The position numbers and the translations under genes were made by a program. A DNA stretch of 11,200 bases from IMG/VR virus record IMGVR_UViG_2541047728_000018; one strand, given 5' to 3'. The DNA is from a virus (Duplodnaviria > Heunggongvirae > Uroviricota > Caudoviricetes). The notes beneath the pieces were generated by a model, which saw only the letters and a program-made list of their open reading frames with translations, was not told where the DNA came from and made no database searches. Of the stretch, positions 1,739 through 10,462 are shown piece by piece. Position 1 is the first letter of the stretch. Each line of letters begins with the position of its first letter.

Positions 1739-1945
1739 ATGGAAGCAATCAGAAAAATTATCTTTCGCCAGGAAGTAAAAAAAATTATCCACATCAAGGC
1801 AGACAGCACGCTGCAAAGCATGATCAACGCCGGAGAATTTCCGCAGGGTTTTCGCGTTGGTTTACGCCGTCGCGGATGGTATGAGGATGATGTGTTGGCC
1901 TGGCAGAAAGAACGCGAACAGGAAGCACGCGGAACGGCTGCTTAA
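1739..1945 (+). CDS. alpA: AlpA-family phage transcriptional regulator / excisionase-like HTH protein
   Basis: 68-aa ORF; ...LQSMINAGEFPQGFRVGLRRRGWYEDDVLAWQKER matches the AlpA family pattern (helix, then F-P-x-x-x-x-x-G-x-R-x-x-x-W, then acidic tail). Its position after int is typical of P4-like and PICI-like islands. Confidence 0.8.
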   Translation: MEAIRKIIFRQEVKKIIHIKADSTLQSMINAGEFPQGFRVGLRRRGWYEDDVLAWQKEREQEARGTAA

Positions 1946-3516: not shown

Positions 3517-3816
3517 ATGAAAAATAAAAATTCTGGCGTTACTGCCAGCGGCCCCGCTCGTCCTGAATTTATGAACGGCGATATTTACCGCGATAAATAT
3601 GGCGGCATGGTAACGATTAAAGGCGTGGCAGAACGGCGCATCACCTACCGTCGTGAAGGCTACGAATATGATTGCGTGATGCCTGTTTATCAGTTTGATC
3701 GTGATTTTTCTCTGGTGCAGGCAGCGCCCCGTAGTGTGCCCACCAGCAGGGAGAAAGCACGCGCCAATATTCAGGAAATAAAAAAGATGCTTAACGTATT
3801 CAGGGGTAAAAAATGA
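3517..3816 (+). CDS. Hypothetical protein (99 aa), translationally coupled to the primase
   Basis: SD GGAGAA upstream; its stop overlaps the primase start in ATGA (3813-3816). Confidence 0.55.
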   Translation: MKNKNSGVTASGPARPEFMNGDIYRDKYGGMVTIKGVAERRITYRREGYEYDCVMPVYQFDRDFSLVQAAPRSVPTSREKARANIQEIKKMLNVFRGKK

Positions 3817-5561
3817 AACTGGCACCGAACGTAAAAAAACAGCCACGCGGAATAAAACACAAAGACACAGAGGTAATTATTTTCGCGGGTAGTGATGCCT
3901 GGTCGCACGCGAAACAATGGCAGGAGCAGGATGGCCCCGCATCCGGCGATAATGTGCCGCCTGTGTGGCTTGGGCCAAATCAGCTTGCCGAACTTGATGC
4001 ACTGAAAATTGTTCCGGATGGAAAAAAACGCGTAAGGCTGTACCAGGCCGGAGAACTGGATTTGGTGGAGACCAAAAAGATTGGTCAGAAGCTGGCGGCG
4101 GCAGATATTCAGGACGCAAATTTTTACCCCGAAGGAATGCACGTCCAGAAGTGTGAAAACTGGCGGCGCTATCTGAATGCTGAGCGTGAAAATATTGCCG
4201 CAGGGCTTACCATGCCGGAGCAGAAAAATACGCAACTGGCACAAATGGCAGACAGTGAGCGCGCGCAGCTGCTTGCCGAGCGCTTTGATGGCGTTTGTGT
4301 GCATCCTGAAAGTGAAATCGTTCACGTATGGCGCGGCGGGGTATGGTGTCCGGTCAGCACAATGGAGCTGAGCCGCGAAATGGTGGCGATCTATTCAGAG
4401 CACAGGGCCACTTTCAGCAAGCGCGTAATCAATAACGCCGTGGAAGCGTTAAAAGTTATTGCCGAACCAATGGGCGAGCCGTCCGGCTATTTGCTGCCGT
4501 TCGCCAATGGTGCGCTTGACCTGAAAACGGGGGAATTTTCCCCGCACACGCCGGAGAACTGGATCACCACGCACAACGGCATTGAGTACACGCCACCAGC
4601 ACCCGGGGAGAACATCCGCGATAACGCGCCAAACTTTCATAAATGGCTTGAGCACGCAGCCGGAAAAGACCCGAGCAAGATGATGCGTATATGTGCCGCG
4701 CTGTACATGATTATGGCGAACCGGTACGACTGGCAGATGTTTATTGAGGCCACCGGAGACGGCGGGAGCGGTAAAAGTACATTCACACACATAGCCAGCC
4801 TTCTGGCAGGGAAACAGAACACGGTAAGCGCTGAAATGACATCGCTTGATGATGCTGGTGGACGTGCGCAGGTTGTCGGGAGTCGTCTTATCGTCCTGGC
4901 TGACCAGCCGAAATATACAGGCGAAGGAACGGGCATCAAGAAAATCACAGGCGGCGACCCCGTGGAAGTTAACCCGAAATATGAAAAGCGTTTCACGGCG
5001 GTAATCAGGGCGGTGGTGCTGGCGACCAACAACAACCCGATGATATTCACCGAACGGGCCGGAGGTGTGGCACGTCGTCGCGTGATTTTCCGTTTCGACA
5101 ATATCGTCAGTGAGGCCGAAAAAGACAGGGAGCTACCGGAAAAGATCGCGGCTGAAATCCCTGTCATTATCCGCCGATTGCTGGCGAACTTTACCGACCC
5201 TGAGAAGGCACGGGCTTTACTACTGGAACAGCGTGACGGTGATGAAGCTCTGGCAATAAAGCAACAGACGGATCCGGTTATTGAGTTTTGCCAGTTCCTG
5301 AATTTTCTGGAGGAAGCACGCGGCCTGATGATGGGCGGCGGTGGCGATTCAGTGAAGTACACGACCAGAAACAGCCTTTACCGCGTCTATCTGGCGTTTA
5401 TGGCGTACGCAGGCAGGAGCAAACCGCTAAACGTAAATGACTTTGGCAAGGCTATGAAGCCAGCCGCGAAAGTTTACGGACATGAATATATTACGCGGAA
5501 AGTTAAGGGAGTAACGCAGACTAACGCAATAACAACAGACGAGTGCGACGCGTTTTTATAA
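3813..5561 (+). CDS. Phage/plasmid primase-helicase, P4 alpha-like (D5_N / primase C-terminal type)
   Basis: 582-aa ORF with Walker A motif GDGGSGKST; overall layout of P4-family primase/helicase C-terminal region; placed between alpA and an iteron origin as in P4-like and PICI replicons. Confidence 0.85.
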   Translation: MKLAPNVKKQPRGIKHKDTEVIIFAGSDAWSHAKQWQEQDGPASGDNVPPVWLGPNQLAELDALKIVPDGKKRVRLYQAGELDLVETKKIGQKLAAADIQDANFYPEGMHVQKCENWRRYLNAERENIAAGLTMPEQKNTQLAQMADSERAQLLAERFDGVCVHPESEIVHVWRGGVWCPVSTMELSREMVAIYSEHRATFSKRVINNAVEALKVIAEPMGEPSGYLLPFANGALDLKTGEFSPHTPENWITTHNGIEYTPPAPGENIRDNAPNFHKWLEHAAGKDPSKMMRICAALYMIMANRYDWQMFIEATGDGGSGKSTFTHIASLLAGKQNTVSAEMTSLDDAGGRAQVVGSRLIVLADQPKYTGEGTGIKKITGGDPVEVNPKYEKRFTAVIRAVVLATNNNPMIFTERAGGVARRRVIFRFDNIVSEAEKDRELPEKIAAEIPVIIRRLLANFTDPEKARALLLEQRDGDEALAIKQQTDPVIEFCQFLNFLEEARGLMMGGGGDSVKYTTRNSLYRVYLAFMAYAGRSKPLNVNDFGKAMKPAAKVYGHEYITRKVKGVTQTNAITTDECDAFL

Positions 5562-5576
5562 TTTTTTGTAATTGCT

Positions 5577-5800
5577 GTCTACCCTGTCTACCTGAGTAAA
5601 GAAAAATACATTTAATTCAGTGCATTAAGTTAGGTAGATAGCTTTTTTTTACTGTCTACCCACTATCTACCCTCTCTACCTGATTTTACCTGAATCAGAC
5701 AGGGAGGTAGATACGGGGTAGATAGTGGATAAAAGCACTCTACCCCGCTGAAAGCCGCGCCATTACTGGCATGAGGGCCACTAAGGTAGATAAGGTAGAC
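5577..5800. repeat. Iteron-type replication origin (about 11 copies of GGTAGAT(A) / (G)TCTACC in both orientations) with a DnaA-box-like site
   Basis: + orientation copies (xTCTACC) at 5577, 5586, 5654, 5665, 5674, 5738; inverted copies (GGTAGAx) at 5633, 5706, 5717, 5785, 5794. AGTGGATAA (8/9 match to DnaA box TGTGGATAA) at about 5724-5732. AT-rich spacer at 5596-5650. Lies immediately downstream of the primase gene. Confidence 0.6.
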
Positions 5801-5849
5801 AAGGGGAGGCACAACTCAAAACTTTTTAAACGAGGGGGTAAAAATAAAT

Positions 5850-6128
5850 ATGCACACTTCAGGGAAATTTAATAAATCACTCAAAAAACGCAGAGACAGA
5901 ACAGAACCGAAATATCGCGCGTTAGATATGACAGAGCACGCTTTAAAGGTGGCAATCAGAACGATAGACCGCCACGCGGGGGAAGGATACGCGAAAGCAC
6001 ATCCCGAACTGATAAGCGCATTCATGACCACGACGGCGGCAAACTTTGCCACGCTGACAGAACGGGAGATTGCCGAAGCGGAACAGGTAACAACCATCAA
6101 CGTTAAAACCGGAGAGGTGGAATCATGA
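5850..6128 (+). CDS. Hypothetical protein (92 aa)
   Basis: SD GAGGGGG upstream; its stop overlaps the ssb start (ATGA at 6125-6128). Confidence 0.5.
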   Translation: MHTSGKFNKSLKKRRDRTEPKYRALDMTEHALKVAIRTIDRHAGEGYAKAHPELISAFMTTTAANFATLTEREIAEAEQVTTINVKTGEVES

Positions 6129-6547
6129 CAGCACAGATAGCAGCTTACGGGCGGCTGGTGGACGACCCGCAGGTAAAACAGACCAGCAAGGGCACACCGA
6201 TGACGCTGGCGCGTATGGCGGTCCCCCTTCCGTGCAGCCAGGCAGATGACGGAACGGCGACGATGTGGTTATCCGTCCTGGCATTTGGCAGACAGGCCGA
6301 AGCACTGGAAAGGCACCGCAAGGGTGAACTCCTGAGCGTGGCGGGTAACATGCAGATCAGCCAGTGGACTGGGCAGAACGGAGAAACGCGGCAGGGCTGG
6401 CAGGTTATCGCAGACAGTGTAATCAGTGCGCGAACGGCGCGACTGGGCGGCAAAAAAGGTCAACAGGGCCAGGCTACTGACGCGCTGAACAGGGCAAAAC
6501 AACAGGCGGGGAATGATGATCCGTACGGGGATAACATACCGTTTTAA
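6125..6547 (+). CDS. ssb: Single-stranded DNA-binding protein (SSB) homolog
   Basis: 140 aa. OB-fold core alignable from memory to E. coli SSB (IAAYGRLVDDPQV..., WLSVLAFGRQAEALERHRKGELLSVAGNMQISQWT...), glycine/glutamine-rich linker, and C-terminal acidic tip ending DDPYGDNIPF (compare the DDDIPF tail of SSB). Confidence 0.75.
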   Translation: MTAQIAAYGRLVDDPQVKQTSKGTPMTLARMAVPLPCSQADDGTATMWLSVLAFGRQAEALERHRKGELLSVAGNMQISQWTGQNGETRQGWQVIADSVISARTARLGGKKGQQGQATDALNRAKQQAGNDDPYGDNIPF

Positions 6548-6962: not shown

Positions 6963-7169
6963 ATGGCTGAAGAGAAAAAAGGCGGTGTTTCGGTGTACAT
7001 AAGCCCCGAAATCGTGGAGGTGCTCAAGCAGCGCCACAAAAAAAACTATGAGGCTGGCGTGGCGGCTGGACTGGATCCGCTGATGACGCCGGAGCCGTCG
7101 ATAGGTTCACTTGTACGCTCTTATTTACTTGCGGCGCTTGGGATGCATAAAAATTATGGGGGTGAATAA
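6963..7169 (+). CDS. Hypothetical protein (68 aa), first gene of the head module
   Basis: ORF whose stop (TAA 7167-7169) overlaps the capsid gene ATG (7169-7171); purine-rich SD upstream. Confidence 0.45.
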   Translation: MAEEKKGGVSVYISPEIVEVLKQRHKKNYEAGVAAGLDPLMTPEPSIGSLVRSYLLAALGMHKNYGGE

Positions 7170-9029: not shown

Positions 9030-9138
9030 GGGTCCTTTCCGGCATATGGACCCGTTACGGGGCGGCGACCTCGCGGTTTTTCGCTATTTATGAGCTTTTT
9101 CAGGGGGGTGGTGGTGGTTTTGTTGTTTGCTCTATCTT
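9030..9138 (+). other. cos site (cosQ-like, lambda-identical cosN, non-lambda cosB) upstream of the Nu1-like gene
   Basis: GGGTCCTTTCCGG (9030-9042) matches the lambda right-end cosQ-proximal sequence; CGTTACGGGGCGGCGACCTCGCGG carries the lambda 12-nt cohesive end GGGCGGCGACCT (9060-9071). Downstream sequence diverges from lambda cosB (no CGTTTCC-type R sites). Confidence 0.7.
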
Positions 9139-9775: not shown

Positions 9776-9969
9776 GAAACGACATGAAAGCGTCATAAAT
9801 CGCCATTTTAGATGATTACCGTGTCGTTTCTTTTTATTGTGTATCTATTTAAAAACAAATAGTTATGTTCGAGAAGTACCGACATGCTTTTTCCAGAAAA
9901 ATTTTCATAAACAGATAAAAACCGCGAGGTCGCCGCCCCGTAACGGGTCCATAATTCCAGGAAGGACCC
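9776..9969 (-). other. Complete lambda-type cos (cosQ, cosN, cosB with R-site-like repeats) in inverted orientation
   Basis: 9917-9952 is the exact reverse complement of 9046-9081. Read on the minus strand, the flank resembles lambda cosB: TTTATGAAAATTTTTCTGG; AAAAGAAACGACACGG; CATGTCGTTTCTCAGTTTTGTTC (compare lambda TTTATGAAAATTTTCCGG; AAAGGAAACGACAGGTG; CTGTCGTTTCCTTTCTCTGTTTTTGTCC). cosQ-like GGGTCCTTCCTGG is the complement of 9957-9969. Confidence 0.65.
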
Positions 9970-10003: not shown

Positions 10004-10285
10004 ATGACAGAAGCCGAAATACTGGGATTAATCCGCCGTGCTGGTGGAATCAGCCAGCAGACTGACGAACAGGCCACGCAGCCGGACAGCGTGACAGCCG
10101 AAAATTATGCGCGTGTTGTTGCTGAGGTGATGCGCCGTGATGGTATCCAGCTTAATGATGTGGATATGCGCAACATACGGATCCGCGTTCTTGAAATGCT
10201 GGCCTACAATCGCCGCGTGGCACTGTATCGGGAAACGGAGAAAATTACATACCACTGGAAGAAGCCGGAGCGGTTGCGGCGGTAA
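10004..10285 (+). CDS. Hypothetical protein (93 aa)
   Basis: ORF with weak SD, immediately outside the inverted cos; Arg-rich C-terminus. No recognisable family. Confidence 0.4.
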   Translation: MTEAEILGLIRRAGGISQQTDEQATQPDSVTAENYARVVAEVMRRDGIQLNDVDMRNIRIRVLEMLAYNRRVALYRETEKITYHWKKPERLRR

Positions 10286-10462
10286 CTGGTTGATATTTTC
10301 GAAATTCGCCAGCGGCGAACATCGGGGAAACCAGCCTAACCCGTTGATATTTTCGGGAACCTCAAATTGAGGAGGTCGGAAACATAACCCGTCATATTCT
10401 GGATGCTGATAATTACCACGCAGCCCATTAAGGCCTAACCCGTTGATTCTTTCGGAAACAGC
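10281..10462. repeat. About four imperfect tandem repeats (period about 48-54 bp) with core TAACCCGTTGATATTTTCGG and recurring CGGAAAC
   Basis: GTTGATATTTTCG at 10289-10301 and 10343-10355; TAACCC at 10337, 10385, 10436; variant cores TAACCCGTCATATTCTGG and TAACCCGTTGATTCTTTCGG. Confidence 0.5.

Follow-up and report, generated by a model that had tools for sequence, protein, structure and literature searches.

The locus analysed here has three points of reference among described systems. The nearest is the E. coli PICI EcCICFT073, which is located between ycfD and phoQ (Fillol-Salom et al. 2018, ISME J, Table S1; PMC6092414). In the plasmid experiments of that paper, a pri-ori segment of the island maintained a thermosensitive plasmid at the restrictive temperature. 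Deletion of ori in this assay reduced the number of colonies significantly, not to zero, while a mutation in rep gave none. The assay reports on plasmid maintenance, as distinct from mapping of the point of initiation (PMC6092414). The same paper suggested that the organisation of the origin is unique to PICIs. The second point of reference is the SaPIs, whose Rep proteins, SF3 helicases of the self-loading kind, use a C-terminal winged helix to bind iterons. These iterons lie directly downstream of rep, flank an AT-rich region and occur in opposite orientations (PMC9371898). The third is the origin of P4, for which six type-1 repeats are annotated.

Here we examined an 11.2-kb stretch of viral DNA, analysed over its whole length and referred to below as the window. 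An original prediction, made from the letters of the DNA, had proposed an iteron origin downstream of a primase/helicase gene near the middle of this window. The repeat cluster is a real origin and was correctly read as one. It is also an already known one, as a 95%-identical copy was shown in the plasmid experiments of 2018 to be needed for replication (PMC6092414). The discovery value is accordingly small, an origin of the EcCICFT073 type having been described and tested in that work. The points added here are incremental: the dyad symmetry of the array, its homology in register with the P4 origin, a two-base difference in the iteron that co-varies with the C-terminal domain of the initiator, a missing primase domain in this protein and a conserved block at 5749-5773.

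The window carries an allele of EcCICFT073

By its sequence, the window represents an allele of EcCICFT073, the E. coli PICI at the roxA/ycfD-phoQ site. Many E. coli chromosomes have near-identical DNA between roxA (ycfD) and phoQ. The genes of the island all run rightward in the order int, alpA-like HTH, icd-like, DUF4222, initiator, SSB, capsid and Nu1-like, and the gene order at the CFT073 locus is the same. The first of them encodes a tyrosine integrase (1-1242, + strand); the DUF4222 protein, a lambda-E-type major capsid protein and a Nu1-like small terminase are likewise encoded on the + strand. The part of the replication module that lies downstream of the repeats (5850-6547, +) encodes a 92-aa protein, phrog_1231, followed by an SSB-like protein (6125-6547). 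The two islands thus share the att site and the gene order, together with the 11 repeat cores described below and an initiator that is 91% identical. They differ in that EcCICFT073 has a shorter hypothetical gene where the window has the Nu1-like small terminase.

Over 271 bp, the origin regions of the window and CFT073 are 95.2% identical (H33). All 11 cores are kept in CFT073 at identical offsets from the stop codon, and the ~12 substitutions that distinguish the two alleles fall in the spacers and at iteron position 7. Matches to the 271-bp region are present in about a tenth of the complete E. coli genomes (564 of 5426).

The published primers for pJP2027 (pri-ori) and pJP2028 (pri-delta-ori) (PMC6092414) were located in both CFT073 and the window. 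In the CFT073 sequence (L002), the pri-delta-ori insert runs to position 7000, which corresponds to 5565 in the window, and the pri-ori insert ends near L002 7307, or window ~5872. What distinguishes the two inserts is therefore L002 7001-~7307, or window ~5566-5872. This mapping indicates that the deleted "ori" consists of the repeat region and a stretch reaching just past the next start codon. Since the deletion covers this segment, the cloning experiment that had been put forward with the original prediction is already in print for this allele family, and the assignment of the segment as a replication origin is borne out by the 95%-identical CFT073 copy (PMC6092414). The deleted segment (~307 bp) also holds conserved blocks that are not iterons, and the requirement for replication applies to the segment as a whole. 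The proposed resemblance to PICI origins holds as well: the array is 3' of the initiator gene, has the layout of iterons and an AT-rich spacer, and is embedded in an EcCICFT073-type gene order at a PICI att site, ycfD-phoQ.

The iterons form an imperfect dyad

The hexamer GGTAGA was searched on both strands of the 11.2-kb window. Eleven exact cores were found, 5 on the + strand and 6 on the − strand, all within 5578-5799, or 2% of the window. Outside this interval, neither strand of the whole window contained another copy, and there was no second cluster. Dinucleotide-preserving shuffles of the window (n=200) contained the hexamer 2.5 times on average and 8 times at most, so that none of the 200 reached 11. 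The earlier count of about 11 GGTAGAT-type repeats in both orientations was thus accurate. When the repeats are oriented alike, their consensus is R-GGTAGA-(Y/G)-A-G. The first iteron starts 15 bp past the stop codon of a 582-aa gene (3813-5561).

The array begins on the left with an outer pair of iterons on the − strand, both GGTAGACA and 9 bp apart (5576-5583 and 5585-5592), the cores of which are invariant among 8 E. coli origins. A 40-bp spacer follows (5593-5632). Its A+T content is 77.5%, whereas the window averages 50% and the mirror-image counterpart at 5745-5784 has 40%, in keeping with the AT-rich spacer proposed earlier; by analogy, it is the predicted site of DNA unwinding. Next come a single inverted iteron, GGTAGATA (5633-5640, +), and a T8 tract, GCTTTTTTTTAC (5641-5652). 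Three iterons on the − strand with spacings of 11 and 9 bp (5653-5660, 5664-5671 and 5673-5680) complete the left half. The dyad centre (5681-5705) contains a one-mismatch copy, GGTAAA, at 5685-5690 (−), a position that is occupied by GGTAGC or TGTAGACA in relatives. To its right are two iterons 11 bp apart (5706-5713 and 5717-5724, +) and a single inverted iteron, GGTAGAGT (5737-5744, −), with an invariant core. The outer right pair, GGTAGATA and GGTAGACA, 9 bp apart (5785-5792 and 5794-5801, +), mirrors the pair at 5576-5592.

The whole array is an imperfect 226-bp dyad with its centre at ~5688.5, and its right half mirrors the left in diverged form. The two arms (113 bp each) match at 65 of 113 positions, compared with 29.6 +/- 4.6 in shuffles. 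The same centre is common to three nested inverted repeats, I1, I2 and I8; I2, which is 86% complementary, relates the outer pair at 5785-5801 to that at 5576-5592. Because no shuffled window reached 11 cores and the dyad matches far exceed those in shuffles, we consider the iteron cluster real and far above chance. The dyad symmetry had been omitted from the description in the original prediction.

Other kinds of feature were considered for this region. An Rfam scan of 5300-6100 gave sub-threshold matches to eukaryotic miRNA hairpins (22-31 bits, against gathering thresholds of 59-150); we attribute these to the dyad symmetry, and an RNA gene was rejected. The small ORFs in the origin region are all <=49 aa and were not taken as genes.

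The upstream gene encodes an SF3 helicase

The gene at 3813-5561 (+) encodes a protein of 582 aa that is annotated as 'DNA primase family protein'. Pfam identifies D5_N at residues 151-280, DUF5906 (SF3 helicase) at residues 314-415 and Pox_D5 at residues 485-574. Residues 486-577 match PDB 1KA8 (E=7e-7), the C-terminal domain of P4 alpha, a winged-helix origin-binding domain for the type-1 iterons. Given this match, the region that codes for residues 481-582 (5253-5558, +) is predicted to specify an iteron-binding domain. Residues 186-430 (~245 residues) match PDB 7OLA (E=2e-16), which is PriRep5 of SaPI5 (PMC9371898). Over residues 141-578, the initiator has 40% identity with P4 alpha. Its overall identity to the EcCICFT073 protein is 91%, with the last 100 residues almost the same.

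The word 'primase' in the annotation derives from TIGR01613, a model named primase_Cterm. While P4 alpha and a related Morganella protein carry Zn_Ribbon_Prim and Toprim_3, the window protein is without a detectable primase domain. The statement that the array lies directly downstream of a primase/helicase gene therefore stands with regard to the position, 15 bp past the stop codon, and to the SF3 helicase; for the primase part, no domain was detected. Residues 1-~135 had no match in Pfam or NCBIfam, even at E<=5. In hhalign comparisons, residues 1-135 had no match to the N-terminus of P4 alpha; with this and with the Morganella N-terminus, the alignment was confined to the start of D5_N. A Foldseek search of a model of the N-terminal domain against the PDB returned nothing at E<=1e-3. 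This single-sequence AlphaFold model has a pLDDT of 62 and a generic beta-alpha-beta fold. The domain may be a degenerate Toprim or primase; the profile, hhalign and Foldseek searches gave no match that points to one. The absence of a recognisable primase domain from a protein annotated as a primase prompts one to ask which primase serves these islands.

The N-terminal ~135 residues occupy the place of the Zn-ribbon/Toprim domains of P4 alpha. The region (3813-4220) is 57% identical to the N-terminus of an otherwise unrelated helicase of the RepA family in the PICI of strain RM12579 (L003 4809-5210), and the domain matches phrog_2850, a family without assigned function. Within E. coli, it is mosaic, with identities of 44-97% compared with 95-99% for the helicase core. 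To us it looks like a portable module.

The left half of the array is in register with the P4 origin

The left half of the array aligns in register with the six annotated type-1 repeats of P4 ori, with three small gaps and a z of 6.3 against shuffles. The repeats are at offsets 17-, 26-, 72+, 94-, 105- and 114- in the window and 14-, 24-, 67+, 89-, 100- and 110- in P4. Start-to-start spacings are 9/46/22/11/9 and 10/43/22/11/10, respectively, and the orientation patterns are identical. Both origins consist of two repeats, an AT-rich spacer, one inverted repeat and three repeats. The pair at 5576-5592 corresponds to P4 repeats 1 and 2, the spacer at 5593-5632 aligns with the AT-rich spacer of P4 ori, the iteron at 5633-5640 is the counterpart of the single inverted P4 repeat, and the three iterons at 5653-5680 are the counterparts of repeats 4-6. 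The P4-like layout that had been proposed is supported by this register. The helicase and C-terminal domains of the initiator are homologous to those of P4 alpha as well. These observations suggest that the origin, the helicase domain and the C-terminal domain of this initiator class are related to those of P4.

The two systems differ in how these parts are arranged. P4 has a separate crr 4.5 kb from ori, whereas in the window a second, mirror-image unit abuts the first. The six-repeat ori array of P4 lies upstream, apart from crr, whereas the array in the window is directly downstream of the gene. When the right half was aligned with the P4 crr units, the scores (z=1.4 and 0.8) were not above those of shuffles; the CTGAAA and AAAACTTTTT motifs are common to the right half and the crr units. 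Because the alignment between the right half and crr is not significant, homology is claimed for the left half and P4 ori only.

On a common strand, the iteron reads TGTCTACC (or NTCTACC) in the window and TGTTCACC in P4. The sole difference is the central dinucleotide, which is CT in the window and TC in P4. With 6 of 8 bases in common, the window iteron is a close variant of that of P4. The original prediction had set the iteron apart from the P4 type I iteron; the sequences do differ, but only in these central two bases. This two-base change is a candidate specificity switch.

The likeness to SaPI origins lies in the position of the iterons next to rep, the AT-rich region and the SF3 helicase with a C-terminal iteron-binding domain. 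Against this, the origins are without sequence similarity, the SaPI iterons are penta- or hexanucleotides, and the helicases are distant (E=2e-16). An iteron plasmid origin of the RepA/pi/TrfA type, with direct repeats of ~17-22 bp in one orientation and a winged-helix Rep lacking a helicase, was also considered and was rejected, as the repeats here are 8-10 bp and in both orientations and the initiator is of the SF3 type.

Iteron cores are conserved among E. coli origins

The origins of the window and CFT073 were aligned with six further E. coli origins (L007, L008, L009, L010, L011 and L012). With the 271-bp region as query, L007, L008 and L009 match at 72-77%, and L010, L011 and L012 match in parts only. 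All six have 9-11 GGTAGA cores at equivalent positions, with diverged spacers. In the alignment of these 8 origins, 53 of the 66 core columns do not vary, compared with 42 of the 175 non-core columns (Fisher p=1.6e-15, with related sequences treated as independent). Because the 8 origins are related, this p value overstates their independence; the contrast is large nonetheless. The mean pairwise identity is 0.90 in the cores and 0.58 outside them. Iteron positions 7-8 differ by sub-lineage, being TA or CA in the window and GG in L011 and L012.

A non-iteron block, CTGAAAGCCGCGCCATTACTGGCATGA (5749-5773), is located in the G+C-rich right spacer and is nearly invariant in the 8 origins. It is the sole long non-iteron block that is kept, against an average of ~58% for the non-core columns. 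No promoter match was found in this block, and in P4 crr only its CTGAAA motif recurs. An invariant stretch further to the right, AAAACTTTTTAAACGAGGGGGT (5817-5838, +), consists of a motif partly common to P4 crr and a Serratia relative, followed by the ribosome-binding site of the next gene. Upstream of this ribosome-binding site, AAAACTTTTTAAAC (5817-5830) is invariant in all of the E. coli origins. A/T runs like it also occur after the final pair of iterons in the Serratia and Morganella relatives and in each of the two P4 crr units.

Iteron type co-varies with the C-terminal domain

A scan of genome contigs with the initiator returned 3 loci, two of which (Serratia and Morganella) were used. 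Relatives of the initiator with 40-53% identity are present in Serratia aquatilis (L005), the vB_KppS-Ant induced prophage (L014) and Morganella (L006). The repeats of these three and of P4 are TGTTCAC(C) or TGTTCAT. The Serratia and prophage origins have the same fused two-unit layout directly downstream of the gene, and Morganella has a comparable array with a different orientation pattern. The vB_KppS-Ant and Serratia aquatilis systems thus resemble the window in having a ~580-aa initiator, in the position of the origin and in the two-unit layout. Their N-terminal domains are related to that of the window protein (39-46% identical), and Pfam found no primase domain at the N-terminus of the Serratia relative. 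They differ from the window in their iteron, which is TGTTCACC as in P4, and in their C-terminal domain, which is 29-36% identical.

The helicase core of the initiator is 58-62% identical to those of the Serratia and Morganella proteins, compared with 29-33% for the C-terminal domain. For the latter domain, the identity is 34% with P4 alpha and 36% with vB_KppS-Ant. Within the GGTAGA group, C-terminal domains are 80-99% identical to one another, and those of the TGTTCAC group are 45-50% identical to that of P4 alpha. Co-variation of the iteron type with the C-terminal domain is supported in this handful of lineages by sequence comparison, and it lends support to the distinct initiator specificity that the earlier reading had suggested.

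In E. coli strain RM12579, the PICI at this att site has flanking genes homologous to those of the window, but its helicase belongs to the RepA family. Downstream of this helicase (L003 6210-6410), six AAGTGAG repeats in both orientations surround an AT-rich stretch. In the 43-kb Serratia phage Scapp (L016 2440-2760), a third iteron type, AAAAGTGCAA, is present in both orientations directly 3' of an alpha-like gene. No iteron array was found downstream of the primase gene of Pasteurella phage Pmp8. Because initiator-iteron pairs differ among these PICIs and phages, we conclude that the initiator core, the C-terminal domain and the iterons swap as one cassette between PICIs. Such cassette exchange, the two-base iteron difference and the missing primase domain are of modest value for the engineering or classification of phage satellites.

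Proposed mechanism and alternative explanations

We propose, with a probability of roughly 90%, that an EcCICFT073-type PICI uses ~5566-5840 as its vegetative replication origin. The upstream gene (3813-5561) would encode a self-loading SF3 helicase-initiator. By analogy with P4 alpha and SaPI Rep, its P4-alpha-type C-terminal domain would recognise a ~10-bp iteron, RGGTAGAYAG. The 11 iterons would constitute two mirror-image units, each with 2 iterons, a 40-bp spacer, 1 inverted iteron and 2-3 iterons. As modelled on the same two proteins, occupancy of the iterons may assemble helicase rings on both sides, and the duplex may open in the left spacer, which is 77.5% A+T. Replication would then be carried out by the host polymerase after induction of the island by a helper phage.

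A broader reading, for which we see about even odds, is that this PICI origin is a direct relative of the P4 origin with a specificity of its own and a replaced primase module. Two P4-ori-like units would have been fused head to head, and the change of the iteron centre from TC to CT, together with the diverged C-terminal domain, would give a specificity separate from that of P4-type replicons. The primase domain of alpha would have been replaced by the ~135-aa module. Other PICIs carry this module on a RepA-type helicase unrelated to the initiator, which suggests that the host or the helper phage takes over the priming. If this broader reading is true, the organisation of PICI origins is not unique to PICIs.

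It is also possible, though unlikely, that the array or its right half is a crr-like cis enhancer or copy-control site, with the left half alone responsible for initiation. The initiator would bind at such a site and loop or handcuff the DNA. The region directly downstream of the alpha-like gene is where P4 has its crr, the right spacer with its 40% A+T is ill-suited to melting, and the CTGAAA and AAAACTTTTT motifs recur in the crr units. Nevertheless, the alignments of the right half with these units do not rise above shuffles, and both halves of the array form one contiguous dyad. A crr-like role would in any case refine the origin model rather than replace it. An effect on transcription is a more distant prospect. 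Since the array is upstream of the next gene, TAGACA within its iteron agrees with the -35 hexamer at 5/6 positions, and a scan found no terminator after the initiator gene, the repeats might be operators of a transcription factor for the downstream operon (5850 onward), with the replication phenotype being indirect. We consider this very improbable. No sigma-70-like promoter was found on the + strand and the one match on the − strand is at chance frequency; of the downstream operon, the pri-ori plasmid in the published test held no more than the initial ~20 bases of the next gene; the layout has its homologue in that of P4 ori; and the repeats co-vary with the C-terminal domain of the initiator, not with a regulator.

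A DnaA-box-like site had been named as part of the origin, and one with an 8/9 match to the consensus does exist, TTATCCACT (5724-5732, −). An origin that depends on DnaA and uses this site with the AT-rich region is nonetheless highly doubtful. The site is a single one, matches with one mismatch number 13 in the window against 10.1 expected, and it is absent from L007, L008 and L009, which keep the iterons. A search for a cluster of DnaA boxes beside an unwinding element found this one 8/9 match. P4 replication is not known to require DnaA. Because the site is at chance level and is replaced by unrelated sequence in these three relatives, we leave it out of the origin and judge that it is not a functional part. 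No match to the IHF consensus was found in the origin. As for the repeats being a chance or low-complexity feature without function, the shortness of the motif is all that speaks for it, and the idea can be practically dismissed: 0 of 200 shuffles reached 11 copies, all copies fall within 2% of the window, the cores are kept across diverged origins, and 564 of 5426 complete E. coli genomes carry the region.

Other sites in the window

Sites for packaging and integration lie away from the origin, with cosN-like sequences at 9060 and 9927 and probable integrase arm repeats at 10283-10448. The lambda cosN-like 12-mer GGGCGGCGACCT has exact copies at 9060-9071 (+) and 9927-9938 (−), which flank the Nu1-like gene. 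Mutants of EcCICFT073 designated delta-cos.1 and delta-cos.2 were made in the published work (PMC6092414). The region at 10283-10448 contains three direct repeats of ~20 bp (TAACCCGTTGATATTTTCGG and variants), each of which matches the IHF consensus on the − strand (3 matches found, 0.5 expected). They adjoin the sequence of a published int-attP cloning primer, TGGATGCTGATAATTACCACG (PMC6092414), and are probably arm-type sites of the integrase or IHF sites of attP. Between int and the early genes, TTATCCACA at 1785-1793 (+) is a perfect match to the DnaA-box consensus.
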